From a virus, in IMG/VR virus record IMGVR_UViG_3300031993_000069: DNA of 64,000 nucleotides; one strand, written 5' to 3'. A program made the position numbers and the translations under genes. The notes beneath the pieces are model-generated. The model had not been told where the DNA came from. It was given only the letters and a program-made list of their open reading frames with translations, and did not search any database. Below are positions 5,199 to 59,976 of this stretch, piece by piece; position 1 is the stretch's first letter; each line of letters opens with the position of its first letter.

Positions 5199-5816
5199 AT
5201 GAAAACTTGAACAATATACTGTCATATTAACAAAATTAATGGTAAAAGATATATTGGCCAAACTAGCAGACAAAAATTAAATTTGAGATGAAAAAGTGGT
5301 TATGGATATACTTTAAAAGACCAAAAGATTTTTGCAGAGGCTATTAAAAAATATGGCTGAGAAAATTTTGATCATCAAGTTTTAGAATCTGGCATTAAAA
5401 CTTTAGAAGAAGCCAATAAAAGAGAAAAATATTGAATTTCTTATTATAATACTTGGGTTTATAGCCAAAATTGTAATGGATATAATATGACTGAAGGTGG
5501 TGATTCTGTTGTTTCTCATACAGCGTGAAATAAAGGAAAACCACAATCAGAAAAACAAAAGCTTGAACATAGCAAAAGAATGTCTGGCAGAAAATTATCT
5601 GAAGAGCATAAAAAAGCTATTAGTGCTGGTCTTCAAAGAAAAGAAAATACCCATAATAAAGCAGTTAAATGCATAGAATTAAATAAAGTTTATAGCTCAG
5701 CAGTAAAAGCATCTACTGAATTAAATATTTTAAGAACAAGTATTACTAATTGCCTGCATAAGCATTCAAATACAGCTGGTGGGTATCATTGAGAGTTCTT
5801 TAAGGAGGAAAACTAA
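5199..5816 (+). CDS. GIY-YIG homing endonuclease with NUMOD-like C-terminus; contains 6 in-frame TGA codons read as Trp
   Basis: Translation with TGA=W gives ...INGKRYIGQTS..., KYGWENF, YWISYYN, AWNKGK and a C-terminal GGYHW, which are hallmark GIY-YIG/NUMOD3 motifs. With standard code the frame breaks at every expected Trp. Confidence 0.75.
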
Positions 5817-5817
5817 A

Positions 5818-6459
5818 TTGTCTCTGGTTATAGCGATAAAAGATAAAGATAGAATTGTGCTTGGCGCTGATAAACAAACCAGCGTAAGTGATTTTAAAGA
5901 CCACTCTAGCACAAAGATTTGGCCTGTCGAAGAACTTCCTGGTGCTTTAATGGGAAGTGTCGGAACTTGTCGTGCATCACAAATTATTCAATATGCTAAT
6001 ATCATCGATAAAAATTTAATTAATGGAGACCTTTCAACAGACTTCATTATTTGTTCATTAGCTCCAACAATTGCTGCAGGCTTAAAAGCTCATGGCATTG
6101 TTGTAGAACCAGGCGAAAATGGCTCGTGTGATATGATGCCAAATTCATTTATATTTGCTTATAAAGACAAAGCTTGAATGATTTGGAATGATTTAAGTGT
6201 AACAGAGATTGGTGACTATTTAGCAATTGGCTCCGGAGCCGATGTTGCTAGAGGTGCTTTATTTGCTACAAAGAAAGAGAAAAATCCGTTTGAGCGTATC
6301 GTTACAAGTATTGATGCCGCTGCCGAGTCAACATTGTTTGTTGATGATGGAATTGATTTATTAGCTACAAAATCGCACAAGGATGATGCAGAGCTTGTTG
6401 CTGCTGCATTTGGTTATAATATTAAAAAGAAATCTGCTGATAATGGTAAGAAGAAGTAG
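5818..6459 (+). CDS. HslV/proteasome-like Ntn-hydrolase peptidase (TTG start; alternative ATG at 5779); one in-frame TGA at 6175
   Basis: SLVIAIKDKDRIVLGADKQTS resembles the HslV N-terminus TTIV..RRNG.VV.AGDGQ.T, and LAIGSGADVARGAL resembles the HslV IAIGSGGPYA motif. RBS AAGGAGG lies 9 nt upstream of the TTG. ORFs 5779..6177 and 6178..6459 are in the same frame, joined by a TGA. Confidence 0.6.
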
Positions 6460-6483
6460 AATTAAATAAATATTAAAACCAGA

Positions 6484-6515
6484 AATCCCGAGTGCGCCAA
6501 AAACATTCGGGATTT
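6484..6515 (+). terminator. rho-independent terminator
   Basis: AATCCCGAG...TTCGGGATTTT hairpin plus U-run after the stop of 5818..6459. Confidence 0.7.
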
Positions 6516-6546
6516 TATTATTGTATAATATTAAAGAGGTATTTAT

Positions 6547-7349: not shown

Positions 7350-7433
7350 GCCCCGGTGGTGAAATGGTAGACACAAGGCACTTAAAATGCCTCGCCGAAA
7401 GGCATGCCAGTTCGACTCTGGCCCGGGGCACCA
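7350..7433 (+). tRNA. tRNA-Leu(TAA), class II
   Basis: Cloverleaf with acceptor GCCCCGG/CCGGGGC, anticodon loop CTTAAAA, long variable arm, A73 and encoded CCA. Confidence 0.8.
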
Positions 7434-7438
7434 CTCAT

Positions 7439-7515
7439 GGCGTCATGGAGAAGGGGCTTAACTCAGCAGCCTCTCAAGCTGCCATTCGCGGGTTCGAATC
7501 CCGCTGACGTCACCA
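7439..7515 (+). tRNA. tRNA-Glu(CTC)
   Basis: Acceptor GGCGTCA/TGACGTC, anticodon stem GCAGC/GCTGC with loop CTCTCAA, T-loop GGTTCGAATCC, CCA. Confidence 0.65.
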
Positions 7516-7636
7516 AGTTGTTAAAAATTTTTAGAAAATATATTTACAATTTAAAAAAATAATTGTATAATATTAATGAGCGTTGAAAAAAGATACGCTA
7601 AATTAAAATGGTCGCAAGACAGGAAGGAAAAGATTT

Positions 7637-7750
7637 ATGGCAAAAGTTATGTTTGGGAACATTCATGAACAACGTAATGATTCAGTATATGGTTGCTGGA
7701 ATATTTTTGCTACTCTTGGATCATCCGGTTTTGTGCAGGTTAATCGATAA
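7637..7750 (+). CDS. small hypothetical peptide (37 aa) inside the tRNA island
   Basis: RBS AGGAAGGAAA 7 nt upstream of the ATG; followed by a strong terminator. Confidence 0.3.
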   Translation: MAKVMFGNIHEQRNDSVYGCWNIFATLGSSGFVQVNR

Positions 7751-7780
7751 GATTAATTAAGAAGAATAACGCATAAATTA

Positions 7781-7812
7781 GGGTGGTCCGAAAAAGACCA
7801 CCCTTTAATTTT
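7781..7812 (+). terminator. rho-independent terminator
   Basis: GGGTGGTC-CGAAAAA-GACCACCC followed by TTTAATTTT. Confidence 0.8.
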
Positions 7813-7813
7813 C

Positions 7814-7899
7814 TGGGGAGATAGCCAAGCGGCAACGGCAGCTGACTGTAAATCAGCCCTCTGACGAGTTCGTAGGTTCGAGTCCTACTCTCCCCACCA
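7814..7899 (+). tRNA. tRNA-Tyr(GTA)
   Basis: Acceptor GGGGAGA/TCTCCCC, anticodon loop CTGTAAA, long variable arm, CCA. Confidence 0.8.
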
Positions 7900-7903
7900 A
7901 CAT

Positions 7904-7980
7904 GGTGTATGGAATCCGACGGTTTTGGATGCTAGTCTGTGAAACTAGATCATTGGGTCCGACTCCCAGCATGCACCCCA
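7904..7980 (+). tRNA. tRNA-His(GTG) with encoded G-1
   Basis: G-1:C73 pair, acceptor GTGTATG/CATGCAC, anticodon loop CTGTGAA, CCA. Confidence 0.75.
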
Positions 7981-7985
7981 GTTAT

Positions 7986-8061
7986 GGGCCGGTAGCTCAG
8001 TTGGTAGAGCACGTGCCTGAAGAGCATGGTGTCGGCGGTTCGATCCCGCCCTGGCCCACCA
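7986..8061 (+). tRNA. tRNA-Phe(GAA)
   Basis: Acceptor GGGCCGG/CTGGCCC, D-arm GCTCAGTTGGTAGAGC, anticodon loop CTGAAGA, CCA. Confidence 0.85.
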
Positions 8062-8076
8062 TAAGAAAGGAAAAGT

Positions 8077-8505
8077 ATGAAAGTTGTATTCTTAGATATC
8101 GATGGCGTATTGAATGATGCTGTTAATATCCACAACCTGATGGATGACAAACCAACAAAAGAGCACTTAGACTGCCTAAAAGCAATCTTAGATGCTACTG
8201 GTGCAAAAGTCGTACTGTCCTCAACTTGGAGATTATTCCCAAACTCCAAGAATATCGTAAAGAATTGTTTACGAAACATTGGCTCTGATATCTATGATAT
8301 AACTAAAGAGCTGCCAAAAGGGAGAGGTGCCGAAATAAAAGAATGGCTTAGTCGACACCCGGAGGTAAATCAGTTCGTTATCTTAGATGACGACATTGCT
8401 GATATTAAGCCATATTACCCAGCGAATATCGTAAAAACGACATTTTATAGGGGATTGCTTCCTCATCACATTGAGCCAGCAATAAAAATCTTAAATGCCG
8501 AGTAA
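8077..8505 (+). CDS. HAD-superfamily hydrolase/phosphatase (142 aa)
   Basis: N-terminal FLDIDGVL (HAD motif I DxDG) and a later ILDDD motif. Sits inside the tRNA island. Confidence 0.6.
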   Translation: MKVVFLDIDGVLNDAVNIHNLMDDKPTKEHLDCLKAILDATGAKVVLSSTWRLFPNSKNIVKNCLRNIGSDIYDITKELPKGRGAEIKEWLSRHPEVNQFVILDDDIADIKPYYPANIVKTTFYRGLLPHHIEPAIKILNAE

Positions 8506-8519
8506 AATCGGCATCACAT

Positions 8520-8596
8520 TGGAGCGTAGCTTAGCTGGTTAAAGCACTCGGCTGATAACCGAGAGACCGCCGGTTCAAATCCGGCCGCTCCAACCA
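8520..8596 (+). tRNA. tRNA-Ile(GAT)
   Basis: Acceptor TGGAGCG/CGCTCCA, anticodon stem CTCGG/CCGAG with loop CTGATAA, CCA. Confidence 0.8.
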
Positions 8597-8600
8597 ATCT

Positions 8601-8675
8601 TGGGGAGTAGCCAAGCGGTAAGGCACGTGGCTTTGAACCATGTATGCGAAGGTTCGAACCCTTCCTCCCCAGCCA
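8601..8675 (+). tRNA. tRNA-Gln(TTG)
   Basis: Acceptor TGGGGAG/CTCCCCA, loop CTTTGAA, CCA. Confidence 0.8.
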
Positions 8676-8743
8676 GTTAGAGCCTATACTTATTTCTAAA
8701 AACTTCCGACTGCAAATCAGAATAATATAGTTAGGCCAAAATT

Positions 8744-8817
8744 AGGGGTATCGTCCAACGGTAGGACTACGGTCTCCAAAACCGTCTATCTGGGTTCGAA
8801 TCCTAGTACCCCTGCCA
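8744..8817 (+). tRNA. tRNA-Trp(CCA)
   Basis: Acceptor AGGGGTA/TACCCCT, anticodon loop CTCCAAA, G73, CCA. Confidence 0.85.
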
Positions 8818-8821
8818 ATGT

Positions 8822-8909
8822 AGAAGCTTGTGTGAGCGGTTGAAACAGTTGGTCTAGAAAACCAATATGCTGAAAGGCATCGAGGGTTCGAATCCCTCAG
8901 CTTCTGCCA
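8822..8909 (+). tRNA. class II tRNA-Ser with anticodon loop CTAGAAA (anticodon AGA, A34)
   Basis: Acceptor AGAAGCT/AGCTTCT, G73, long variable arm TATGCTGAAAGGCAT, anticodon stem TTGGT/ACCAA. Confidence 0.6.
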
Positions 8910-8928
8910 AAAATATTTAAAAAAAGTA

Positions 8929-8957
8929 TTTACAACCTAAATAAATGGTTGTATAAT
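8929..8957 (+). promoter_or_regulatory. sigma70-like promoter
   Basis: TTTACA-N16-TGTATAATAT. Confidence 0.6.
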
Positions 8958-9190
8958 ATGAATGTGAATATGAGGACTGAAAAGACCATCACTCAGTAAG
9001 TTTGAATAGAGTAGGTATGACGACTCCTGACACCGCTTAGTCGTCATGTCTGTGAACAAGATTTCACAGCGGCAGGCTAATGCCGTAAAACTTAGTCTAG
9101 GGTACAGCTGATGCGAACGTGGCAAAGGCCGAGGCCGAAGAAGGGCATAACAGGAGCGGACACCCTCTAAAGAGTGAGGCCACCAGATAT
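8958..9190 (+). ncRNA. unidentified structured ncRNA candidate (~230 nt) transcribed from the 8929 promoter
   Basis: ORF-free and GC-enriched. Contains several perfect hairpins (ATGACGACT...AGTCGTCAT, CTGTGAA...TTCACAG, CGGCA...TGCCG). Ends where tRNA-Glu begins. Confidence 0.35.
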
Positions 9191-9267
9191 GGTGCCGTGG
9201 AGAAATGGTTTAACTCATCACCCTTTCAAGGTGACATTCACGGGTTCGAATCCCGTCGGCATCACCA
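9191..9267 (+). tRNA. tRNA-Glu(TTC)
   Basis: Acceptor GGTGCCG/CGGCATC, anticodon stem TCACC/GGTGA with loop CTTTCAA, CCA. Confidence 0.8.
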
Positions 9268-9272
9268 AATTT

Positions 9273-9359
9273 GGAGAGCTGTGATAATTGGTAGTCGGGC
9301 GGTCTTGAAAACCGTTGGGTCGAAAGGCCTTCAGGGTTCGAGTCCCTGGCTCTCCGCCA
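9273..9359 (+). tRNA. tRNA-Ser(TGA), class II
   Basis: Acceptor GGAGAGC/GCTCTCC, loop CTTGAAA, long variable arm, G73, CCA. Confidence 0.85.
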
Positions 9360-9467
9360 TTATCACTTATTAGTACCCACTTGCTCAATACTAGTAATGA
9401 GCAGACAAAAAAGAACGCCAGGTGAAATAAATTTTAAGGGTTTAAGTTCAGAGTAGCCACTTATCAT

Positions 9468-9544
9468 GGGTCACTAGCTCAATTGGTTAGAGCAGCCGGC
9501 TGTTAACCGGCAGGTTGTGGGTTCGAGTCCCTCGTGGCCCGCCA
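9468..9544 (+). tRNA. tRNA-Asn(GTT)
   Basis: Acceptor GGGTCAC/GTGGCCC, loop CTGTTAA, CCA. Confidence 0.8.
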
Positions 9545-9682
9545 TACGGTCCTTAGATATATTACCTTCTCGTGGTGGGACTGAACAGCTAAAGGATACT
9601 TGGAATTAATAGTATCGGCTAGACGAAACTTATATCGTAAAGACACGACTGGCCTGACGTGCGTAAATAACGGCCACCAAAT

Positions 9683-9757
9683 GGATCGCTCGTATATCGG
9701 TTAGTATACTTGGCTGTCTACCATGGGAGGAGGGTTCGATTCCCTCGCGGTCCGCCA
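9683..9757 (+). tRNA. tRNA-Asp(GTC)-like (atypical anticodon stem)
   Basis: Acceptor GGATCGC/GCGGTCC, loop CTGTCTA, T-arm GAGGGTTCGATTCCCTC, CCA. One mismatch in the anticodon stem and a pyrimidine at position 37. Confidence 0.5.
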
Positions 9758-9945
9758 TTGGAGCCTATACTTATTTCTAATTTGAAGATTCCAAGCCGCC
9801 ATTCGTAGGTTCGAATCCTACCATACCAGTATGGTATGTAGCCAAGCGGGAAGGCAGCGGCCTCAACAAAGCCAGTTAGGCCAAAATTAATTAAAACAAA
9901 TAAAGGAGATTAAGCTTATGTAATTATTTTAAAGGAGAAAAACTT

Positions 9946-10200
9946 ATGAATAGTTACTTTCGTAAAAAATACGAGAAACAAAAGCTTAAAAAACTAGCTG
10001 AAAAATGTGCTGGTTGGTGTGGCGGCAGCTATTATAGCGAAAGAAAAGGCCGTTACATTCGTTTTTGGAAAAGCCAAGGTAAAAATTCCTTCTGGGCTAC
10101 CGAAAAAAGATATGGCAGACGCATCTATCGAAGAAAGGCTAATAAAGTTGATTATAAATTAGCTAAAAAAGCCTTCGATCTTTGGTGGAATGTTTGGTAA
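9946..10200 (+). CDS. small basic hypothetical protein (84 aa)
   Basis: ORF with RBS AAAGGAG; Lys/Arg-rich. Confidence 0.5.
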   Translation: MNSYFRKKYEKQKLKKLAEKCAGWCGGSYYSERKGRYIRFWKSQGKNSFWATEKRYGRRIYRRKANKVDYKLAKKAFDLWWNVW

Positions 10201-10232
10201 AATGCTGTATAATATTAAGAGGTATACTCAGT

Positions 10233-11192
10233 ATGACTAAAATTATCCAAAATTTTTCAAGCAAAAAGCATATTAAAGCACTTCCTGTATTTGATATATT
10301 ACTTTGGAGTGCTGGATTACTTAATTTTAAAAAATTAGGCTATAAAACGAAGCTCTATTGTGAAAAATCAGATATTCCCTTCTTAAAGCGCTGGGGTTTA
10401 TATGATCTCTATGATGAAATTGATAGTAGATATCTAACAAAATTAGAGGAAGATGAGCGCTTTAAACAAATTGATGGTAATTGGTTTTGGTCTGTAAGAA
10501 AGCTATTTTGCATTGAACATGAATATAGTCTTAAATCAAAAGATAAATTCATGTATTTCGATACTGACATCTTACTTTATGACCATATTGAATTGCCAGA
10601 TTGGGCAAACCTATTCGTCTGGTCTATTGAAGAAGAGCCTATTTATATTCCTTGGGAATTCATGTCAGTTCCAGAAGGTTATAAAAAGCCTGAAGAATTC
10701 GATGATGACATGATTGCCTATAATTGTGGTATCTTAGCATTCAGCGATAAAGAAAAGTTTGAGCAATATTTTGCTGAATACTTGAAATTTACACAAGGAA
10801 ATCCCTGTAAATTATTACAAGGAGCTAATACTTCTGAGAAAACCCTCAAAAATATTTGGGCCTGTAATGCAGAGCAACGTATCCTATTAAATATTTCTCG
10901 TGCTGGAGACTGGAAAACTGTTATATTTGCAAATCCAGAGCAAGAAACCGGAATTCTTGGTTTCTATAAGGGCGGTAAACATTTCTATTTACTTCGTGCA
11001 ATTCTAAGAGATTTCACAGATGAAACTCAGGAGTCATTTAGAAACTTCTGGTTAGATATGTATAATGAAAATATCAAAGAATGCTTAGAGGTATTAGAAA
11101 AAGAAAATCCAGCACAATTAAATATATTCTTAGAAATTCCTTGGATTAAAAATTTATATAAATATAATTTCAAGGTAAAAGAATATAAGTAA
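10233..11192 (+). CDS. hypothetical protein (~320 aa)
   Basis: ATG at 10233 follows the TGTATAATAT promoter (10205) and RBS AAGAGG. The track ORF 10182 start lies upstream of the promoter. Confidence 0.6.
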   Translation: MTKIIQNFSSKKHIKALPVFDILLWSAGLLNFKKLGYKTKLYCEKSDIPFLKRWGLYDLYDEIDSRYLTKLEEDERFKQIDGNWFWSVRKLFCIEHEYSLKSKDKFMYFDTDILLYDHIELPDWANLFVWSIEEEPIYIPWEFMSVPEGYKKPEEFDDDMIAYNCGILAFSDKEKFEQYFAEYLKFTQGNPCKLLQGANTSEKTLKNIWACNAEQRILLNISRAGDWKTVIFANPEQETGILGFYKGGKHFYLLRAILRDFTDETQESFRNFWLDMYNENIKECLEVLEKENPAQLNIFLEIPWIKNLYKYNFKVKEYK

Positions 11193-11203
11193 AGGAGATA
11201 GCA

Positions 11204-11494
11204 ATGGGCGAAGATGTTTGGACATTGGGGCTATTTACCCTAAGAGACTACAACCATACAGAACCAGAATTAAAGGCTTGTGACCATTTATTCTGTATTA
11301 CTTATCAACAAGGGCAAGAGGAATATCCAGTAATGCTCTTGTGGAAACGCGGTAAACGATGTTTTACCAGGACCTGTAATGCTCCAGGTCTTAAATTACC
11401 AAAAGATATGCAAACAGCTATGTATCTATCAAGATTATCTACGGCTGCCATTCGTATCTTAAATGGTGAAAAGTTTAACCTATTTGATATATAA
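11204..11494 (+). CDS. hypothetical protein (96 aa)
   Basis: ORF with RBS AAGGAGATAGCA. Confidence 0.5.
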   Translation: MGEDVWTLGLFTLRDYNHTEPELKACDHLFCITYQQGQEEYPVMLLWKRGKRCFTRTCNAPGLKLPKDMQTAMYLSRLSTAAIRILNGEKFNLFDI

Positions 11495-11508
11495 AATAGG
11501 CACGACAT

Positions 11509-11594
11509 TGCGGTGGAGTGGCACGGACAACTATAAACCATTCTAGGCTCATAACCTAGCGATACCGGGTTCGACTCCCGAGCACCGCAACCAG
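11509..11594 (+). tRNA. tRNA-Met(CAT)-like with an enlarged D-region
   Basis: Acceptor TGCGGTG/CACCGCA, anticodon stem CTAGG/CCTAG with loop CTCATAA, T-loop TTCGACT, CCA. Length 85 nt with a 16-nt D-loop. Confidence 0.5.
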
Positions 11595-11875
11595 GAGTAG
11601 TTTTTGTTAGTTTTTGGAGCGCCAAGATCAAATACAAACTAACAGACAGTGTGACTATGTATATGATAGCACTATTCTAAAAATCGAAAGGATATACACC
11701 AGAAATTTGGTCGGCTAGTTGGCGTAAACCTAGCGATAGGAGCGTTTGCAACAGACCCTCAATAACTGCAGTGAGAGGGCAAGCACGAGCCTCCAAGAAG
11801 AGACTGCGATGGATGAAATATTCCTAGTGCACTTGGGCCGAGGACACAAGGTTCACTGGTTAAAGAACAAAACAC

Positions 11876-11951
11876 GGGGTATTGGTGCAGCGGTTAACAT
11901 GCCTCCCTGTCACGGAGGAGACCACGGGTTCGAATCCCGTATGCCCCGCCA
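11876..11951 (+). tRNA. tRNA-Asp(GTC)
   Basis: Acceptor GGGGTAT/ATGCCCC, anticodon stem CCTCC/GGAGG with loop CTGTCAC, CCA. Confidence 0.8.
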
Positions 11952-11980
11952 GTTCTTATTCAATTTATTTAGGAGGAGTT

Positions 11981-12283
11981 ATGATTATTACATTTAATGA
12001 TTTTTATGTCAATGTAACAGAAAATAATGTGCATATTCATGACTCTTACAAGATAAAAGGTAAGAAAAGAAAGCTTGAAATCATTAATGCAATCATAGCT
12101 TTCTGTCCAGAAGCTTTCAAAACTAGAACAATTAAGTCAGTTCTGAGAGAGTGGCGTGCACATAATGTCTTATATAAATTACATATTGCTAGAAATAGCA
12201 CAATGCATACAGACATTGAAGCACATCAAAAATTATTTTATAAAATTAGCTATTTACTTATTAATATATTCGGTATAGAATAA
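11981..12283 (+). CDS. hypothetical protein (100 aa)
   Basis: ATG with RBS AGGAGGAG 5 nt upstream, directly after tRNA-Asp. Confidence 0.5.
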   Translation: MIITFNDFYVNVTENNVHIHDSYKIKGKKRKLEIINAIIAFCPEAFKTRTIKSVLREWRAHNVLYKLHIARNSTMHTDIEAHQKLFYKISYLLINIFGIE

Positions 12284-12289
12284 GTATAT

Positions 12290-12365
12290 GGCTGGGTAGC
12301 CAAGTGGTTAAGGCGTCAAGCTCATACCTTGAAGATCGTCAGTTCAAATCTGACCCCAGCTACCA
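12290..12365 (+). tRNA. tRNA-Met(CAT)
   Basis: Acceptor GGCTGGG/CCCAGCT (G1·U72), loop CTCATAC, CCA. Confidence 0.7.
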
Positions 12366-12370
12366 GGTAT

Positions 12371-12445
12371 GCTCGCTTAATTCAGCGGGAGAAGGCAATC
12401 CTTACAAGATTGAGGTCGGCAGTTCGAATCTGTCAGCGAGCACCA
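12371..12445 (+). tRNA. tRNA-Val(TAC)
   Basis: Acceptor GCTCGCT/AGCGAGC, anticodon stem CAATC/GATTG with loop CTTACAA, CCA. Confidence 0.75.
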
Positions 12446-12644
12446 CGGCATGTATGCAATTATAAAACGCAGCCTACCGGTAAAGTAGGTGCTCTGAGTA
12501 GTCTCGAAGTAAGAGCTTTGTGGAATATTGCTAAATCGAGACTTTAGTAACAATATTCTAGGTGCAATTCCCACCATGCCAACCACCGCTCGGCTAGAGC
12601 ACAGCAAATCATACGGCTGTGTAGGAGAATCCCCGAGCAACCAC

Positions 12645-12718
12645 GCGGGAATAGGACAGTGGTAGTCCATCTGCTTGCCATGCAGACTACGCGGGTTCGA
12701 TTCCCGTTTCCCGCTCCA
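12645..12718 (+). tRNA. tRNA-Gly(GCC)
   Basis: Acceptor GCGGGAA/TTCCCGC, loop TTGCCAT, CCA. Confidence 0.8.
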
Positions 12719-12789
12719 CCAGGACAGATAAAGATTAGGTTCTTTATTAGGTTCTATGGCTGGACAAATCGATAAAACCAGCCACATTT

Positions 12790-12863
12790 GCGGGTATCGT
12801 CCAATGGTAGGGCCTCTGCCTTCCAAGCAGAAGATACCGGTTCGATCCCGGCTACCCGCTCCA
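12790..12863 (+). tRNA. tRNA-Gly(TCC)
   Basis: Acceptor GCGGGTA/TACCCGC, loop CTTCCAA, CCA. Confidence 0.8.
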
Positions 12864-12892
12864 TGCAGTATTTAGAAGGAGAAAATGCAATG

Positions 12893-12985
12893 AAAACACT
12901 TAAACTCAGTAAACTAAGTCGCCGTCGCTGTATAGCATGTTTTCGTTGTTGTCTTATAAATACCGCGTTAGCTCAATTGGATTAG
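12893..12985 (+). CDS. small Cys-rich basic peptide (30 aa) candidate
   Basis: RBS AGAAGGAGAAAATGCAATG. The peptide MKTLKLSKLSRRRCIACFRCC... has CxxC..CC spacing. Overlaps the 5' end of tRNA-Arg. Confidence 0.2.
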   Translation, partial: KTLKLSKLSRRRCIACFRCCLINTALAQLD

Positions 12986-13039
12986 AGCATATCGCTACGA
13001 ACGATAAGGTTGTGGGTTCGAGCCCTACACGCGGTGCCA
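12962..13039 (+). tRNA. tRNA-Arg(ACG)
   Basis: Acceptor ACCGCGT/ACGCGGT, loop CTACGAA, CCA. Confidence 0.8.
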
Positions 13040-13045
13040 GACATA

Positions 13046-13122
13046 GGATAGGTACCCAAGTGGCTTAAGGGAGCGGTCTGCAACACCGTTATTCGTGGGT
13101 TCGAATCCCATCCTATCCTCCA
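13046..13122 (+). tRNA. tRNA-Cys(GCA)
   Basis: Acceptor GGATAGG/CCTATCC, loop CTGCAAC, CCA. Confidence 0.8.
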
Positions 13123-13125
13123 AAT

Positions 13126-13200
13126 GGTCGTATAGCTCAACGGCAGAGCGGGCTCCTTATAAGGGCTAGGTTCCTGGTTCGAATCCAGGTGCGACCACCA
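13126..13200 (+). tRNA. tRNA-Ile(TAT) (AUA-decoding type)
   Basis: Acceptor GGTCGTA/TGCGACC, anticodon stem GGCTC/GGGCT (2 G·U) with loop CTTATAA, CCA. Confidence 0.55.
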
Positions 13201-13301
13201 AAACATGTTAATAGCACGCTCCTTTATGAAAAATCTTCAATATAAAGGAGTTTATTTATTTCAGCAAATATTGTATAATATAAAAGCAAGGAGCTATAAA
13301 A

Positions 13302-13820
13302 ATGATTGGTAAACACTTAAAAGACTATAAAAAAGCTTATAAAGCTGACCGCAGAGAAAACAGAAGAACTTGCGTTAAAAGAAATTCTGATTGGAAAAAA
13401 CGCTGGTTACCATTTATTAAGTATGATCATGATTTTGACGGCTTCTTCCTAATTGAACTTATGGTTCATAAATTACATATTATGCTTGATTACTATGACC
13501 ATGGCAAATATTGTATGCAAGTCGATGAGAGCCGACTTGAAATTGTTGAAAGCTTAAAAGAAGCTTGTAGACTTGGTGATTTAATCTTAGAGGATGATTT
13601 CAATGAACCTGCCTATAAAGTTATGATGGAACACCACCGTATGTGGACTGAGCCATGCAAAGACAATAGTCATCTTTGTGAAATTAAAATGGAATGGGAT
13701 AGCCCAGAGGCTAAGGCTGAATATGATAGGCTTGAAAAAGAAACTGATGCTCTCAGAGAAAAGACTATCGATGAATTCTTCGATTTTGTTAGAAAACATT
13801 ATCGTGAATGGTGGGATTAA
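13302..13820 (+). CDS. hypothetical protein (172 aa)
   Basis: ORF behind TGTATAATATAAAAGCAAGGAG. Confidence 0.6.
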   Translation: MIGKHLKDYKKAYKADRRENRRTCVKRNSDWKKRWLPFIKYDHDFDGFFLIELMVHKLHIMLDYYDHGKYCMQVDESRLEIVESLKEACRLGDLILEDDFNEPAYKVMMEHHRMWTEPCKDNSHLCEIKMEWDSPEAKAEYDRLEKETDALREKTIDEFFDFVRKHYREWWD

Positions 13821-13861
13821 TTAGTCCTCATCGAAAATGTCATTGAAAAAAACTAGACATT

Positions 13862-13952
13862 GGAGGAATACCCAAGAGGCCGAAGGGGACGGTTTGCTAA
13901 ACCGTTAGTGGTCGCAAGGCCAGCGAGGGTTCAAATCCCTCTTCCTCCGCCA
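13862..13952 (+). tRNA. tRNA-Ser(GCT), class II
   Basis: Acceptor GGAGGAA/TTCCTCC, anticodon stem ACGGT/ACCGT with loop TTGCTAA, long variable arm, G73, CCA. Confidence 0.8.
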
Positions 13953-13957
13953 TCTAT

Positions 13958-14034
13958 GCCCCGGTAACCGAATTGGCATAGGTACTAGACTTAGAATCTA
14001 GGTTCTGTGGGTTCAAGTCCCACTCGGGGTACCA
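13958..14034 (+). tRNA. class I (77 nt) tRNA with anticodon TAG (a Leu anticodon) and short variable loop
   Basis: Acceptor GCCCCGG/TCGGGGT (two G·U), anticodon stem CTAGA/TCTAG with loop CTTAGAA, 4-nt variable loop, T-loop GGTTCAAGTCC, A73, CCA. Confidence 0.55.
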
Positions 14035-14037
14035 TAT

Positions 14038-14415
14038 GGGCTCGTACTGGTTTCGATTGGTATTTGATGCTTATGACTACAGCAAGCTGATAACTTACTA
14101 TCAAACAAAAACAAACGACAAAACAAACTTTATGGCACACCTTGCCAACAACCAAATGGTTGCTGCTCGCGCCTAGTTCGCGAGAATGGTGATTGAGCTA
14201 GATAAGGTCGAATTTAGTTCTCTATTAATCAGACCTCGATGTTTATATCTAAGTAACTCCATATAAATGTTTAAATAAAGAGTAGACAACTGCTAGTATC
14301 GGATCGAAGGACTTGAGGTTCGCCGATAAAAAGAATATTTCTCAGGTTAAAGCTGTAATTAACGTTGTGGGGGTTTGGTATCAAGACAGGAGTTCGATTC
14401 TCCTCGGGTCCACCA
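14038..14415 (+). ncRNA. ssrA: tmRNA (transfer-messenger RNA)
   Basis: The 5' end GGGCTCGTACTGGTTTCGATTGG resembles the canonical tmRNA 5' end GGGGCUGAUUCUGGAUUCGAC. The 3' end AGGAGTTCGATTCTCCTCGGGTCCACCA pairs with the 5' acceptor and has G3·U70 and A73 (Ala identity). Length 378 nt. The internal frame ...NNQMVAARA-TAG is a candidate tag ORF. Confidence 0.75.
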
Positions 14416-14419
14416 TAAT

Positions 14420-14506
14420 GGGCGAGTGGCGTAACTGGTAGCCGCAATGGTCTAAGAAGCCATTGACCGAAAGGTCGTAGGGGTTCAAGTCCCCTCTCGC
14501 CCACCA
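14420..14506 (+). tRNA. tRNA-Leu(AAG), class II, A34
   Basis: Acceptor GGGCGAG/CTCGCCC, anticodon stem ATGGT/GCCAT with loop CTAAGAA, long variable arm TGACCGAAAGGTC, A73, CCA. Confidence 0.6.
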
Positions 14507-14561
14507 GAGTTATCTTTAATAATATTGTATAATATATTAGATATTGAAAGGAATTTATCTT

Positions 14562-14894
14562 ATGTATAGTTTACAAGAATTAATTGAACATGGATATGTC
14601 GATAGTATTACAACTGATGGAACACATCTTGGTGATGGTTATACTATTGTTGTTAAACTAAGCAGATATTCTATTGGTAAGATTACAATTAATGTTGGTA
14701 TTGATGAATACTTAGATGATGCTGTTACGCTTATTAATGGTATTATTGATATTCAAGAAAGCTTAAATAAAGAAGCTAAACCGGAAGAAAAGCCAACTAT
14801 TAGACATGTAACTGATCCAGATGAAATAAAGGAAATACTTTCTGGAACAGCAATTAAAGACACAAAAATTGAACCAGAGGATTATGCGGAATAA
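14562..14894 (+). CDS. hypothetical protein (110 aa)
   Basis: ATG behind promoter TGTATAATAT (14525) and RBS GAAAGGAA. Confidence 0.55.
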   Translation: MYSLQELIEHGYVDSITTDGTHLGDGYTIVVKLSRYSIGKITINVGIDEYLDDAVTLINGIIDIQESLNKEAKPEEKPTIRHVTDPDEIKEILSGTAIKDTKIEPEDYAE

Positions 14895-15073
14895 TGTATC
14901 AAATTATTAAAGACGATAAATATTATCTATATAATGATATAGGCGAAGAATTAATGACAATTACCTTCGACAATTCATTACCAGGAGACCAAGTAGTTAT
15001 TACTACACAGGATGAAGTTTATGCTGGTCCAATAAAATTTGTTACTTTTTCTGGAGATATTCCAAAAGAGTAG
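14894..15073 (+). CDS. small hypothetical protein (59 aa)
   Basis: ATG overlaps the upstream stop (ATAATG). Coding-like composition. Confidence 0.35.
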   Translation: MYQIIKDDKYYLYNDIGEELMTITFDNSLPGDQVVITTQDEVYAGPIKFVTFSGDIPKE

Positions 15074-15089
15074 CTTGTATATTATTAAT

Positions 15090-15186
15090 AGGGGCTTAGT
15101 GTAACGGCAGCACAACGGTCTTCAAAACCGCAAAGCGGGGGCCTCCAAAACCCCAGGTGCGGGTTCGAATCCTGCAGCCCCTGCCA
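15090..15186 (+). tRNA. Trp-like opal-suppressor tRNA, anticodon TCA, with an unusual 25-nt extra arm
   Basis: Acceptor AGGGGCT/AGCCCCT, G73, CCA. The D-arm and anticodon stem ACGGT/ACCGC are nearly identical to tRNA-Trp(CCA) at 8744, but the loop is CTTCAAA. A 25-nt insertion AAAGCGGGGGCCTCCAAAACCCCAG between the anticodon and T arms forms a hairpin. Own promoter TTGTATATTATTAAT sits immediately upstream. Confidence 0.7.
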
Positions 15187-15252
15187 TATAGAGCCTGTAC
15201 TTATTTCTATCACAAACCTTGAAATTTGCACGCAGTAGTCAGGCCATTTATT

Positions 15253-15438
15253 TTTATGAAATTTAAGTATAGAATTATTTGGGTTAATACAGTTAAAGGA
15301 AAACAAGAATATGTTGATATCGATGACCAGCATATTGTATTGTTTGTCGCTAAGAAAAAAGTTAGCGATGGAATGCAAGGAGTCATCATTCAAGTTTCTG
15401 GTGATCCATCTATGACTGACCCAGATGATGCTAGCTGA
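15253..15438 (+). CDS. hypothetical protein (61 aa)
   Basis: ORF downstream of motif A. Confidence 0.3.
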   Translation, partial: FMKFKYRIIWVNTVKGKQEYVDIDDQHIVLFVAKKKVSDGMQGVIIQVSGDPSMTDPDDAS

Positions 15439-15504
15439 CCGGCTATTGATGCGAATGCTTCTGAAGCTGAAAATAAAATAATTTAAAAAAATTAAAAAAA
15501 ACTA

Positions 15505-15534
15505 TTTACAAAAAATAAAAAAGTATTGTATAAT
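15505..15534 (+). promoter_or_regulatory. sigma70-like promoter
   Basis: TTTACA-N16-TGTATAATAAT. Confidence 0.6.
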
Positions 15535-15539
15535 AATAT

Positions 15540-16180
15540 TGTGAGTGTTAAGCAAGCACTCCAAAAGTGTTCTTTGAAAAATTTTAATTGGCACCTCGAT
15601 GAAGACATCTTGCACGATGGTCGAGGCTCGGCTCTAAGATGATGATAACTGGTGGGATACTGCTGGGTAAGTTGAAACTTCCAAAGTGATGAAGAAGTAA
15701 ACCTATTTAATTAGGATTGAGTCGATGGCGCAATTTGTTGCAGCGATTTAGATGAAAACACATATGCGGGTCCGACAAGAAGCTCTGGCCGTAAGGTCAT
15801 CTCACCTGTGGTATTAAGCCTGAGAAACTTAATGCCCGGTAACTCAAAGGAAGGACGCGACTTGATGTCAAGAAATTGACTATAACTGGTAATGTGTTTG
15901 TACAAGTAGCCGTATGTCGTACTACAAAGCTTTAACAGGATATTTATTAAATACTTTGCTGAAGCTCGGTGAAAGTTGATAGGTAAAGGTCCTATCTGTG
16001 GAAGTCGTAAGACCATTGGAGAAGTTATAGGGTAGCTCCCTGTGACTCAGCCTCCCGTGAGCATCCATTAATAAAGTCAAGCAATAAGGGTTGTATGGTG
16101 AAGACCGGAAATTAAAATTTTTTAAAGAGCACTTAAAAGTATTGCTAAATTAAGTAGACTTAAAAAGTCAGAAGGAGAAA
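15540..16180 (+). ncRNA. unidentified ~640-nt ORF-free structured RNA candidate
   Basis: Lies between a strong promoter and a small ORF. GC-enriched relative to the genome, with no ORF above 60 aa on the + strand. No RNase P P4 motif (GGAAAGUCC) seen. Confidence 0.3.
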
Positions 16181-16184
16181 AAGC

Positions 16185-16274
16185 ATGTTAAACTTAGTTA
16201 CTGTTAACGTTAGACCTACAGCAACAGCCAAACCAGCGTTGGTAAGTTTTGATATGCTCATGACCTCTGATAGA
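16185..16274 (+). CDS. small peptide (29 aa) candidate
   Basis: RBS AAGGAGAAAAAGC then ATG; followed by a perfect terminator. Confidence 0.25.
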
Positions 16275-16302
16275 TAAGTTAACTTAAAAACTTAACTAAG
16301 AT

Positions 16303-16335
16303 ACCGCAGTTGTGATGAGCAGCTGCGGTTTTTTT
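16303..16335 (+). terminator. rho-independent terminator
   Basis: CCGCAGTTGTGATGAGCAGCTGCGG followed by TTTTTTT. Confidence 0.85.
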
Positions 16336-16506
16336 AAGAAAAAATAACTAGCAATGTAAAACTCATAAGAGAGACGTGACGAAACCAAGGACTTCTGTGC
16401 CTTGGTCCCAAAAGTCTAAGGGATGAAATGAAGCCAGCAGTGCACAAAAAACTTGTTGCCTGATAAAAAAAGAGGCTGGTCAGGCAGAAGAAGAACGAAA
16501 GCTAGT

Positions 16507-16590
16507 TAATTATATGGGCCGATAGTTTAATTGGGAAAATACCCGCCCTGCAAGCGGGAGTTAGGGGTTCAAATCCCCACGTGTCCACCA
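16507..16590 (+). pseudogene. tRNA-like element (Ala-TGC-like anticodon arm, T-arm and CCA) with a non-pairing acceptor stem
   Basis: CCCGC-CCTGCAA-GCGGG anticodon-like arm, GGGGTTCAAATCCCC T-arm and a 3' CCA. The 5' GGGCCGA does not pair with the 3' CGTGTCC. Confidence 0.3.
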
Positions 16591-16595
16591 TTTAT

Positions 16596-16671
16596 GGGGG
16601 TGTAGCTCATCTGGGAGAGCACTTGATTAGCATTCAAGAGGTAGCGAGTTCGATCCTCGTCACTTCCACCA
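16596..16671 (+). tRNA. tRNA-Ala(AGC), A34
   Basis: Acceptor GGGGGTG/CACTTCC with G3·U70 and A73. Anticodon stem CTTGA/TCAAG with loop TTAGCAT. CCA. Confidence 0.6.
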
Positions 16672-16735
16672 GACAGAACCTGTGCTTATTTCTAACGTTA
16701 AATTTGGGATTTAAAAAGTAGCAGCCAGGTCAATT

Positions 16736-16811
16736 GCCGCCTTAGCTCAACTGGCAGAGCAACCGCCTTGTAAGCGGTAGGTTACTGGTTCGATTCCGGT
16801 AGGCGGCACCA
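16736..16811 (+). tRNA. tRNA-Thr(TGT)
   Basis: Acceptor GCCGCCT/AGGCGGC, loop CTTGTAA, CCA. Confidence 0.8.
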
Positions 16812-16815
16812 CTTT

Positions 16816-16892
16816 GGGGGTGTAGCTCAATTGGGAGAGCGCTCGCCTTGCAAGCGAGGGGTTGCGGGTTCAAGTCCCGTCACGTTCCACCA
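16816..16892 (+). tRNA. tRNA-Ala(TGC) with a 1-nt bulge in the 3' acceptor strand
   Basis: Acceptor GGGGGTG with G3·U70, anticodon stem CTCGC/GCGAG with loop CTTGCAA. The 3' strand CACGTTCC carries one extra nt. CCA. Confidence 0.6.
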
Positions 16893-17327: not shown

Positions 17328-17331
17328 TTAT

Positions 17332-17408: not shown

Positions 17409-17427
17409 AAAAATTATTAAAAAACTG

Positions 17428-17849: not shown

Positions 17850-17853
17850 AATC

Positions 17854-21686: not shown

Positions 21687-21687
21687 T

Positions 21688-49400: not shown

Positions 49401-49818
49401 AGGCCCAACAGGTGCTACTGGCCCTACAGGACCACAAGGCTTAATTGGTCCTACTGGTCCATCAGTTAGCTCTGCTGTAACCTTATATGATGGCGATGGT
49501 ATGACAAATGAAATGGCTGTCAGTGGCGTAACTCCAGCCGCTCTTACTTTCACAAATTTAAAGAATTATGGATTAATTGTCATGCTAGGCTATAAGAATG
49601 GTCACAGCAATGGTAATGGTATTATTATATTTTCTCCTGCTGCTCTTGATGCTTGGGGAAATTACACAGTTGCTTTAGGTGCTGATAACTGGCAATATAA
49701 TCTTAAATTATGGAAACCAGGTGAAGGCTCTGAAAAGATAACTTGGGCAACACAATCAGATTATGGCAGTAGCTATGAATTTACTGTTCATAAAGTTTAT
49801 GGAATTGGGAGAGTATAA
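46480..49818 (+). CDS. collagen-like tail-fibre protein (~1112 aa) spanning track ORFs 46480..49197 and 49366..49818 via in-frame TGA at 49195
   Basis: Junction motif [25 protein letters not shown] followed by hundreds of G-P-T-G/G-x-x-G triplets in several blocks. Upstream motif TTTTTGCTAAATTATATGATTAG. Confidence 0.7.
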
Positions 49819-54805: not shown

Positions 54806-55195
54806 ATGGATAAAAAATTTAGAATAGACTGAATTTTAGCCAATTATACCGTAGAAACCTGGAATGAAATGTATAAAAAAGCCGAAAAGGGAGAGCCTGA
54901 TGCTCAAACTGTTGATTATAATGACATTTATCCAGATGCTACGAATAGTTTAAACATTGACTATAATACTATGTACCATCTTGTTGAAACTGGGTCAGAA
55001 ATTACAGATCCAGAAATGAAACGAGATGTAGAAGACTGGAATAAAGGTATTCTTCCTCCTGAATCTGATCATGACGAAGTTATAGGTCATACGCTAGTTT
55101 TAAGAGGAAAAAGTACTGTTATTGCAGCAACTAATACTATTAAATTGGATAATAATGAAACTATAAATAATAAAAAGCATTCATTAGTTTTATAA
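54806..55195 (+). CDS. hypothetical protein (~129 aa) with in-frame TGA at 54830
   Basis: RBS TAGGAGGCAG then ATG. Frame-continuous with track ORF 54869..55195 across a TGA. Upstream motif TATTTGCTAAATTATATGATTAATGAC. Confidence 0.5.
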
Positions 55196-58200: not shown

Positions 58201-58305
58201 AGAAATATTCCAATTTATGTTTTCAAAGCTAGCGGATATATTGATTGGAATTCAGGCAACTCTGACGCCGTTTATATTACTGCAATTTTAGGTATTACTA
58301 AGTAA
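55210..58305 (+). CDS. collagen-like tail-fibre protein (1031 aa)
   Basis: About 75% of the protein is G-x-x triplets (GPTG/GAKG/GEKG). Confidence 0.7.
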
Positions 58306-58320
58306 GGAGTTTAAAAATAT

Positions 58321-58644
58321 ATGAAAATTTACTTATTATTAAAAGATACTATTATTACTGGTTATTCTTATTCAGAACTTCCAGAAACAATTGAAGTTGA
58401 AATCGAAAATCCAAATAGTATCAAACTTGGTATTGATGCTTACGTCGATGGAAAAATCATTTCAAATGAAATTCCAGCTGCTCAAGTCAAAGCTGCTAGA
58501 ATTAGAGAATTAAAAGGCTTATTAGCTGAGTCTGATTATCTTTGCTTAAAGCATGCTGATGGCGCCTTATCAGATGAAGAATATGCTGAGACAAGAGCAC
58601 AAAGACAAGCTTGGAGAGAAGAAATCAATAGCTTAGAAAACTAA
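58321..58644 (+). CDS. small conserved protein (paralog of 49821)
   Basis: See 49821. Confidence 0.5.
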   Translation: MKIYLLLKDTIITGYSYSELPETIEVEIENPNSIKLGIDAYVDGKIISNEIPAAQVKAARIRELKGLLAESDYLCLKHADGALSDEEYAETRAQRQAWREEINSLEN

Positions 58645-58650
58645 TTTTAG

Positions 58651-59976
58651 GTGACTGAAATGGCAGAAAAAGTATTAAATGATAAATCAGCCAATGAGAA
58701 AGTCTATGATATCTTTAATATGCCATATGTTAAAGAAAATCCTAGAGTTAACCCAACAGCCAAAAAAATTCTAAATGATGAATTTACGTTGACTGATATT
58801 AGAAAAATATATAAAGAAGCTAAAGAAAAACTTTATGAAGAAACTACCTCGGACCTCTTAGATGATTATGTCTATTGGGGTCCAAGTAGAAGTCATTCTG
58901 AAGATTGAGGCTATGATAGCTCTGATATGGTCGGCGGAATGGGCTATAATATCTTTACCATTAAAGATGTTGCGTTTACAGACCAAGGCTATGGAATGAG
59001 TGGCGACCTCAAACGTACTGATAAGTTTGATATCTCATTAGAGCTTGCTTTATGGGGCTTATACAATAGTCGCTATGATGAAGATGAGGCTAGCGAATTC
59101 TTAGACCAAATGGAGAGTGACTCTGAAATTGCTTTTGAAGATATTCAAGAAGAGCTCAATGAAATTTGGGAAAAAGAAGAAAATGAAAGACAGACCAGAG
59201 ATGCTGAGAGTAAAAAAGTTTATGGCGTTAAAGGCCAAGTTACTATAAACATTAGCGTTGATGCTCCAAGCAGTAATCATTCAAATCATAAGGCAGAATT
59301 AAAATATGATTATGATGTTGTCGCTGATGTTGACTTGCCTTTCCAACCAGGAACGCCTATAGTAAGCAAGATTGTTCCAGTTGACTTTAATTTAACTGAT
59401 ATTAAAGATCCAAATGATTTTGATAAGGCACTTGGTAGAGAGCTTTCAAAAGGCTTAGAAAGCATAGCTGATTTAGAAATGGATAAGATTTATAATTCAA
59501 ATCCATTTAAGGTTAGCTTTGATTTCATTCCATATAATAAACAAAAACCAGCTTCAATGAAATATATCTTATATCAATCACCAAAAAACAATAAATATTA
59601 TATTACTTCAAAAGGCATTGGTATTGAAAATTTAAGATTATTCTGGGATTCTAAAAGCTTAAATTATAAATCAATGACTATATCAAAGACAGCTTCTTCT
59701 GGACACAGATATACCGTAGATGCGGTTAAAGATATTGCATTAAACCGCAGTAATTGCAATCAAAACTATCTTGCATTAGATGATGAAGACGCTTATAATA
59801 AATTCATTGTTCCTAATAATAAGATGAATATTGCTGTTAAGCTTGGCTTACGATTATTATTCTTAGTCGATTATCATGTTGATTTAGAAATTACTGAAGG
59901 CAGCAATAAAACTAAAAAAGTTGATGATTACTCAGGAAGCCAAAAAATTAAGGAATTTCCTGCGAAATTGATATAG
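58651..59976 (+). CDS. hypothetical structural protein (~441 aa) spanning track ORFs 58651..58908 and 58927..59976 via TGA at 58906
   Basis: Same frame with a single TGA in between (SHSEDWGYDSSD). Confidence 0.55.

Follow-up and report, generated by a model that had tools for sequence, protein, structure and literature searches.

Reassignment of the TGA stop codon to tryptophan (Trp; genetic code 4), accompanied by suppressor tRNAs and a bias of the recoded codons towards late genes, has been published for phages (10.1101/2021.08.26.457843, Borges et al.), including the Jade phages and some crAss-like phages (10.1101/2021.08.26.457843; PMC7886860). Borges et al. assume that the host tryptophanyl-tRNA synthetase (TrpRS) charges such tRNAs in a side reaction, and a TGA suppressor tRNA was detected in only 35% of the code-4 phage genomes (10.1101/2021.08.26.457843). 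Thirteen phage tRNA species with the anticodon UCA insert Trp in an E. coli extract (PMC12636597). Here we analyze a 64-kb stretch of viral DNA with a GC content of 37%, IMG/VR record IMGVR_UViG_3300031993_000069 (the whole stretch is referred to as the window), in which TGA apparently serves as a rare Trp codon and which carries a gene for a 97-nt opal-suppressor tRNA of the Trp type, tRNA(UCA). Recoding itself is already known in phages; the unusual part is a second hairpin within this tRNA, located in the variable arm, that copies the anticodon loop of tRNA-Trp(CCA).

The window very probably belongs to the genome of a large tailed phage, from metagenomes of the gut or rumen type, that probably infects Firmicutes, uses TGA as a rare Trp codon and encodes its own tRNA decoder. 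It resembles the TGA-recoded Jade and crAss-like phages in its in-frame TGA codons standing for Trp and in the location of the suppressor tRNA gene in a region compatible with the standard code. It also shares with them the enrichment of recoded codons in structural genes, a large genome, an origin in animal-gut metagenomes and Firmicutes-type signals. It differs from TGA-recoded phages in that it has no “code-change module” (TrpRS or release factor 1) and its holin gene is not recoded; the second anticodon-like hairpin of the suppressor tRNA is not mentioned in the papers searched. There is no terminase or capsid gene in the window from which to assign it to a clade such as Jade or Agate.

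Coding is almost wholly confined to the plus strand. Reading frames bounded only by TAA or TAG were listed, and 64 genes were then curated on the basis of their ribosome-binding sites, which are mostly of the AGGAG type; TGA was rendered as X in the translations to keep the homology searches unbiased. The TAA/TAG-bounded frames and the curated set contain 18 in-frame TGA codons, distributed over nine genes that are otherwise open to TAA or TAG (Table 1). Each in-frame TGA listed in the initial annotation, made from the sequence without database searches, was found again, and its per-gene counts also sum to 18 (its text had “at least 16”). Two gene starts given there had to be moved: the HslV-like gene begins with TTG at 5818, not at 5950, its N-terminus agreeing with that of the ortholog in the related contig L003, and the last fibre-module gene begins with ATG at 58660, not at 58651.

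The curated genes end with TAA (52) or TAG (12), and none has an unambiguous TGA stop. The sole candidate, already singled out in the initial annotation, is TGA 19600 of the methyltransferase gene starting at 18793, which is followed by AAA AAT TAA. With an assumed TGA-stop frequency of 15–20%, the probability of finding at most one TGA stop among 64 genes is 4e-4 to 1e-5. Within the genes, TGA occurs 19, 120 and 1017 times in the three frames, TAA and TAG being absent from frame 0. The 19 TGA codons (including the ambiguous one at 19600) stand beside 217 TGG codons, i.e. TGA makes up approximately 8% of all Trp codons. The open frame continues for 90–475 codons beyond most of the TGAs, and homologous proteins span the sites.

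The strongest evidence that TGA stands for Trp comes from DNA comparisons with orthologs. The codon opposite TGA 6175 in the ortholog from the IMG/VR contig L003 is TGG, and so is the codon opposite TGA 32950 in the L019 and L002 orthologs, where it lies in the motif GGWYD. Exchanges between TGA and TGG were found in columns 54 and 86 of the endonuclease when compared with L023 (91% amino acid identity), and in columns 144, 196, 284, 345 and 356 of the glycine-rich fibre-module protein when compared with L022 and L024. Such exchanges with relatives from other samples (L022, L023, L024 and L140) run in both directions: codon 127 of gene 36672 is TGG in the window and TGA in L140 within an identical 13-residue context, and the L140 ortholog of the large fibre protein contains six TGAs, one of which faces a window TGG in an invariant HW motif. 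The large fibre protein has a repeated domain (..YxCxxAITxAEAWxxxHW..) present both before and after TGA 41241, and in an internal repeat of the collagen-like fibre protein W faces TGA (NQ-W-KYLGQF vs NE-TGA-RDLGQF).

Protein homologs give a consistent picture. Three of the endonuclease TGA columns contain W in 45, 53 and 52 of 60 aligned homologs, two are aromatic or mixed (Y/W/F and L/W/Y) and one consists mostly of gaps. The initial annotation had placed four of these TGAs at Trp residues of consensus motifs; this holds strongly for KYGWENF and GGYHW, but the YWI column is the mixed L/W/Y one and the AWNKGK column is mostly gaps. In the glycine-rich protein, W occurs in six of nine homologs at TGA 44588 and in all nine at TGA 45035. 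Of the 13 sites that were assessed, two are in columns that are not conserved. Because the homolog columns are occupied by W or another aromatic residue and never by Gly, Cys or Ser, and because TGG exchanges with TGA, TGA is predicted to encode Trp and not Gly, in line with the initial annotation and with the presence of a Trp-type tRNA(UCA) in the window.

The nearest relatives, L002, L003, L019 and L140, look recoded too and offer no standard-code contrast. In the fibre module, L140–L142 are 85–99% identical to the window. L002 was first read as a standard-code relative since code 4 gave no rise in its coding density; this was dropped, as two of its TGA-ending open reading frames (ORFs) extend by 101 and 355 codons, so that it is probably recoded. 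A search for loci related to the glycine-rich protein among viral contigs found none, and a megablast of positions 38000–58000 against the INPHARED phages gave no match.

The most thoroughly recoded gene encodes a homing endonuclease of 205 codons. It had 109 homologs, many with PF01541, PF07460 or PF22083 domains. The protein has a GIY-X10-YIG motif, which reads ..TIYCHINKINGKRYIGQT.., and a NUMOD-type DNA-binding tail. With TGA translated as W, the GIY-YIG domain (PF01541) reaches 22.5 bits (cut-off 22.6) and PF22083 24.8 bits, under its cut-off of 27. With X at the TGA positions the GIY-YIG domain was not detected by Pfam, and a sequence search of the X-containing protein against the PDB gave no match. 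Near-complete recoding is shared with the relative L023, found in another sample, which suggests that this is a mobile gene adapted to, or confined to, code-4 phages.

The decoder, tRNA(UCA), is encoded within a large tRNA array; both had been overlooked in the initial annotation, and the decoder is the central element of the mechanism considered here. Its acceptor, D and T stems comprise 7 bp (with A1-U72), 4 bp and 5 bp, respectively; the discriminator base is G73, and the terminal CCA is encoded in the gene. The acceptor stem (AGGGG..), G73, the anticodon arm (ACGGUCU[U]CAAAACCG) and the T arm match both the tRNA-Trp(CCA) of the window and E. coli tRNA-Trp. The sole functional difference between tRNA(UCA) and tRNA-Trp(CCA) is the change of C34 to U; the two are paralogs, the latter being the apparent parent. 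The anticodon and G73 are among the identity elements of tRNA-Trp (PMC12135181); G73, A1-U72, G5-C68, C35 and A36 are all present in tRNA(UCA), C34 being the one that is changed. The phage tRNA(UCA) species studied earlier (PMC12636597) share the UCA anticodon and are charged with Trp by bacterial TrpRS, as is predicted for the tRNA described here; in that study tRNAs longer than 100 nt were deemed of low confidence and variable-arm structure was not discussed, and the form found here has 97 nt. The protein-coding genes within the array contain no in-frame TGA, so that the tRNA changing the code resides in a region readable with the standard one. A promoter and terminator scan around the tRNA(UCA) gene revealed no dedicated promoter.

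Compared with tRNA-Trp(CCA), tRNA(UCA) carries 23 additional nucleotides that form a hairpin in the variable arm. Its loop, CUCCAAA (15143–15149, with CCA at 15145–15147), is identical to the anticodon loop of tRNA-Trp(CCA), so the molecule contains two anticodon-type stem-loops in tandem, the first with UCA and the second with CCA. A pattern that required both loops and left stem pairs 3–5 free was found in 19 IMG/VR contigs and 73 metagenome stretches; the tRNA core of L166 (Ga0265298_10018719) is identical to that of the window. Of 40 unique cores, 35 have a hairpin in which all pairs are formed or just the loop-closing one is lacking (C·A, as in the window). Compensatory changes are abundant; for example, pair 5 is G-C in 14 cores, A-U in 12, C-G in seven and U-A in two. 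In the alignment of covariance model R1, 96% of the hairpin helix is paired and each of its four pairs varies on both sides; this alignment was fitted to the model and is hence biased to its structure, and the loop-anchored pair counts are independent of it. The minimum free energy (MFE) fold of tRNA(UCA) alone was no better than that of shuffled sequences (z = -0.13), and the structural evidence is therefore the covariation, not the folding energy.

As a control for bias towards the loop, we repeated the scan requiring only a UCA anticodon arm separated by a long gap from the T arm, leaving the variable arm unconstrained. UCCA was present in the variable-arm loop of 44 of the 61 unique model-matched long-arm tRNA(UCA) sequences. 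Typical loops are CUCCAAA, GUCCAAA, UUCCAAC and GUCCAUA; the part equivalent to U33-C34-C35-A36 is invariant, unlike positions 37 and 38. Most of the remaining 17 sequences begin with GG.. and end with ..CGCCA, and in our judgement, based on their overall form, most of them are similar to selenocysteine tRNA (tRNA-Sec). Normal-length tRNA(UCA) genes with the same anticodon arm were found at only 19 loci. The long-form genes are mostly located in large tRNA arrays with a tmRNA gene, often right beside tRNA-Trp(CCA), and at these loci coding density rises by approximately 0.1–0.2 under code 4. The tRNA-family pattern was also run against 185,579 genomes, each from a different species, from which the family is nearly absent: seven of the eight matches were chance occurrences in coding sequences of Flavobacteriaceae and others, not tRNAs. 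These data show that the extra hairpin exists, is conserved and goes together with phage opal suppressors.

A tentative explanation, preferred here although we regard it as possible rather than probable, is that tRNA(UCA) represents an undescribed and almost wholly phage-restricted class of tRNAs in which the variable arm acts as a functional replica, or decoy, of an anticodon arm. The host TrpRS, or some other factor that reads the anticodon of tRNA-Trp, would meet its CCA loop as a C34-C35-A36 signal that offsets the C34U exchange, leaving UCA to decode UGA; recognition by the synthetase would thereby be uncoupled from decoding within a single tRNA. In a less likely variant, the molecule switches between two cloverleafs, one showing UCA and the other CCA. 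When the sequence is read instead as a tRNA-Trp(CCA), its variable loop has the canonical length of 4 nt (AGGU) and the UCA hairpin is an insertion that follows position 26. A duplication relic is unlikely, because the hairpin covaries; a role in modification or in evasion of host defence is another possibility. Several points weigh against the decoy. According to the structural study of E. coli TrpRS there is no need to discriminate C34 from U34 (PMC12135181). Ordinary phage tRNA(UCA) species accept Trp in an E. coli extract (PMC12636597), so the extra CCA loop is not strictly needed. Moreover, the variable-arm loop is far from the site of the true anticodon on TrpRS and has another geometry.

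We found no description of a variable-arm anticodon mimic in the open-access full-text literature, which is no proof of novelty. A precedent for such mimicry is the operator of the E. coli thrS mRNA, in which a mimic of the anticodon arm recruits an aminoacyl-tRNA synthetase. Binding of these enzymes to anticodon mimics in mRNAs has been described (PMC6542539). The proposed logic is the same, i.e. a hairpin that copies the cognate anticodon loop and would be bound by the anticodon-binding domain of the synthetase; however, the thrS-type mimic is located in an mRNA and regulates translation, whereas the hairpin described here lies inside a tRNA and its binding by TrpRS is hypothetical. Type II tRNAs and tRNA-Sec likewise have an additional helix that separates the anticodon arm from the T arm. 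The variable arms of type II tRNAs have loops of 3–5 nt and linkers of 1–2 nt, in contrast to the arm of tRNA(UCA), which has a 7-nt anticodon-type loop and single-stranded linkers of 4–7 nt before and 4 nt after it. In addition, the acceptor stem, D arm and T arm of tRNA(UCA) are of the tRNA-Trp type, unlike those of type II tRNAs or tRNA-Sec. A different kind of long-arm tRNA was observed in the more distant relatives L004 (5259–5349) and L018 (762–851), which encode tRNA-Trp with a CCA anticodon, 90–91 nt in length, with a different, AU-rich long variable arm (AGAAUUUUAAUAUUCU); long-arm variants of tRNA-Trp thus recur in this phage group.

The initial annotation had left open whether the phage recodes TGA or follows a host that itself uses code 4. 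The first alternative is supported; the second, in which a Mollicutes-like or other TGA = Trp bacterium is the host and there is no phage-driven change, is improbable. It would account for the lack of unambiguous TGA stops, and the tRNA family has its one cellular-genome match in a metagenome-assembled genome named “Bacilli bacterium”, on a contig of 41.7 kb; the class Bacilli of GTDB includes mycoplasmas. In low-GC cells with code 4, TGA is the main Trp codon. The figures for the window (19 TGA vs 217 TGG at 37% GC, and TGA confined to a minority of the genes) do not show such predominance. The tRNA-Trp(UCA) of Mycoplasma and Spiroplasma is alike in that U34 reads UGA, and UGG by wobble, and that TGA is no stop. 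These bacteria have lost release factor 2 (RF2) and use TGA as the dominant Trp codon, in contrast to the roughly 8% in the window, where the tRNA(UCA) is virus-encoded, has the 23-nt insertion and is accompanied by a retained CCA tRNA-Trp. That the phage brings both tRNAs, and that the tRNA family is nearly absent from cellular genomes, also argues against a recoded host. Firmicutes with the standard code are suggested by the strong ribosome-binding sites (AGGAG) together with a ROOL RNA and a c-di-GMP-I riboswitch. All this favours recoding that is specific to the phage, in a host with the standard code, as proposed in the literature (10.1101/2021.08.26.457843).

Less probable still is leaky readthrough of TGA by a near-cognate host tRNA-Trp, with tRNA(UCA) being incidental or inactive. 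The TGAs are few, which would suit it, and so would the following base, which is never C and mostly A or G (A 8, G 8, T 2, C 0), much as after TGG codons; real stops are followed by T in 31 of 73 cases, and this contextual evidence is weak. The yield of full-length protein from genes with six TGAs in 205 codons or four in 428 codons would, however, be negligible; a conserved, well-folded tRNA(UCA) co-occurs with recoding in many contigs; and TGA stops have been lost throughout the window. Decoding of TGA as selenocysteine is highly improbable. It is evoked by the “tRNA-SeC” label that ARAGORN gives to 15090–15186, which stems from the 97-nt length and long variable arm and is wrong: the acceptor and D stems have 7 and 4 bp (8 and 6 bp in bacterial tRNA-Sec), the sequence is that of a tRNA-Trp, and the best Rfam match is the general tRNA family RF00005 (54 bits), not tRNA-Sec. 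The alignments refute it as well, since the homolog columns hold W, Y or F and never Cys, TGA swaps with TGG, and sites are found also in structural proteins, which have no redox function. Equally remote are a Gly reading (code 25, Gracilibacteria or Absconditabacteria hosts), despite several TGAs in the Gly-rich surroundings of gene 44039, and real stops, pseudogenes or assembly errors: Gly occupies none of the TGA columns in the homologs and the tRNA has Trp identity features, identical TGAs occur in independent assemblies from other samples (L022–L024 and L140–L142), and the frames stay open for 90–475 codons beyond the TGAs.

The concentration of TGA in structural genes and the homing endonuclease, noted in the initial annotation, is statistically real: TGA accounts for six of seven Trp codons in the endonuclease, and the fibre module differs from the other genes (Fisher p = 5e-4). 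The early genes named there as lacking TGA do so, with five TGG codons in the gene at 1422–3437 and six in phoH (4288–5196). The RNA-repair and nucleotide-metabolism genes near the tRNA array are also free of in-frame TGA, save for the ambiguous 19600 of the methyltransferase gene; these TGA-free neighbours encode PhoH, a HAD “Swiss-army-knife” domain protein, a Thg1-like enzyme, phosphoesterases, ThyA and DHFR. Two recoded genes, encoding the endonuclease and the proteasome-like protein, are located in an early-looking region beside phoH. This distribution fits the pattern published for recoded phages and is compatible with expression gated by the accumulation of the suppressor tRNA. In the mechanism we envisage, the host TrpRS would charge tRNA(UCA) with Trp, the charged tRNA would compete with host RF2 at UGA, and the TGA-containing genes would yield a full-length product only after tRNA(UCA) has accumulated. 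The genes so gated would be mainly those for tail fibres, together with the mobile and almost fully recoded GIY-YIG endonuclease. A timing switch for late genes is plausible, the late-gene comparison covering 64 kb of the genome.

Several observations weigh against this reading of the window. The holin gene (37263–37607; Pfam Phage_holin_6_1), directly upstream of the fibre module, has four TGG codons and no TGA, and eight of the 14 fibre-module genes lack TGA as well; as TGA also makes up only about 8% of Trp codons, a timing switch would act on a subset of genes. Two of the TGAs could act as real stops. One is TGA 19600, which is at the ancestral stop position, the L019 and L002 orthologs having TAA or TAG there or adjacent to it. 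The other is TGA 46327, which is located 17 codons ahead of TAA and at which the public gene call P0119, from a relative, ends; the 17 codons 3′ of it are conserved in the relative, with one synonymous change. In the glycine-rich protein, the other two TGA columns are variable and do not contain W in the homologs. No release factor, TrpRS or other code-change protein emerged when about 45 proteins of the window were scanned with PHROGs and Pfam. Lastly, the assignment of Trp to the TGA sites is made at the sequence level, and that of the host to Firmicutes from indirect signals. Recoded lysis genes have been reported for other alternatively coded phages, with which the TGA-free holin gene of the window contrasts.

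Table 1. Recoded genes, tRNA features and TGA usage in the window
Feature	Position	Strand	In-frame TGA	Remarks
GIY-YIG/NUMOD homing endonuclease	5199..5816	+	5208, 5289, 5358, 5433, 5526, 5790	TGA/(TGA+TGG) 6/7 (86%)
Proteasome/HslV-like Ntn-hydrolase gene	5818..6459	+	6175	TTG start; Pfam Proteasome 22.5 bits, cut-off 22.4
tRNA array	7350..18579	+		37 ARAGORN tRNAs, one Rfam-only tRNA (38) and tmRNA
tRNA-Trp(CCA), canonical, phage-encoded	8744..8817	+		ARAGORN
tmRNA inside tRNA array	14038–14415	+		
Opal-suppressor tRNA, Trp type, 97 nt	15090..15186	+		ARAGORN; anticodon UCA at 15122–15124
Second anticodon-type hairpin, variable-arm position	15138..15154	+		Stem GGGG(C)/(A)CCCC, 5 bp; 7-nt loop
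S-adenosylmethionine (SAM) methyltransferase gene	18793..19611	+	19600	Pfam methyltransferase domains; TGA ambiguous, followed by two codons and TAA
Conserved gene of unknown function	32893..33759	+	32950	
Large tail-fibre protein	38487..42671	+	41241	1394 aa
Glycine-rich fibre-module protein	44039..45325	+	44588, 44660, 44900, 45035	428 codons; Pfam Gly_rich_2
Fibre protein, YadA-head-like domain	45346..46383	+	45922, 46327	Pfam YadA_head
Collagen-like fibre protein	46480..49818	+	49195	
Small fibre-module gene	54806..55195	+	54830 (codon 9)	Strong ribosome-binding site at 54806; 120 codons open after TGA
Fibre-module gene	58660..59976	+	58906 (codon 83)	355 codons open after TGA
Fibre module, 14 genes	38487–59976			TGA/(TGA+TGG) 10/70 (14%)
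Other 49 genes				TGA/(TGA+TGG) 3/159 (2%)

Further observations concern the tRNA array and its surroundings. The tmRNA gene is located near tRNA(UCA) in several related or recoded contigs (L030, L033, L034, L041 and L042), and in L003 the tmRNA (1742–2159) directly adjoins tRNA(UCA); ribosome rescue may be linked to UGA recoding. In L038 (138–214 and 1856–1951) and L040 (2161–2256 and 3898–3974) an amber-type tRNA with the anticodon CUA, labelled “Pyl” by ARAGORN, occurs together with a long opal tRNA(UCA), and these two contigs may suppress two stop codons. The Rfam-only tRNA of the window (16516–16587, 40.6 bits), missed by ARAGORN, has a mismatched acceptor stem and the anticodon loop CCUGCAA (UGC, possibly Ala) with C instead of U at position 33; it may be degenerate or unusual. 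Approximately 400 nt downstream of the suppressor tRNA there is a full-length ROOL RNA (RF03087, 213 bits; 15571–16127), flanked by a near-consensus promoter-like site (15505–15534) and a terminator-like hairpin (16303–16329). A Thg1-like tRNA-His guanylyltransferase is encoded at 24159–25109, yet none of the 38 window tRNAs is a tRNA-His. Its companions of the RNA-repair type are a HAD_SAK_2 protein (8077–8505) and phosphoesterase/RNA-ligase-like proteins (34296–35995).

The gene directly after the methyltransferase gene (19686–21257) encodes a 523-aa SPFH/Band 7, flotillin-like protein, which is unusual phage cargo. A c-di-GMP-I riboswitch aptamer (RF01051, 52 bits) is located at 26753–26828, just upstream of an unknown gene (26884–27537). 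A region of 3.5 kb (29337–32892) is nearly devoid of credible ORFs on both strands, whichever of codes 11 and 4 is applied; there is an ORF of 117 aa at 30290–30643 and a sub-threshold match to the abiF RNA at 31484–31519. A short inspection of this 29.3–32.9 kb region, comprising an Rfam E-value search and a search for repeats, explained nothing and found no notable repeats. The block 25113–32892 is absent from L019 and L002, in which it is missing between the Thg1-like gene and the ortholog of gene 32893.

Code 4 is needed to annotate this region, given that code 11 truncates or splits nine genes. For gene 58660..59976, annotation under code 11 leaves a gap of 282 nt, and the start that it implies has a poor ribosome-binding site. 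Public gene calls of relatives stop at in-frame TGAs: the call at 3693–7640 of L140 gives 914 aa instead of 1315, and the call P0119 (L140 10001–10699) gives 232 aa instead of 250. Database proteins of this phage group are thus systematically truncated by code-11 annotation. The UCCA-loop arm could aid the detection of suppressor tRNAs. The covarying copy of the CCA loop is a concrete candidate for how a UGA-reading tRNA keeps its Trp identity in a standard-code cell. If this is true, it would be a natural design that uncouples the anticodon from synthetase recognition, useful for genetic-code expansion.

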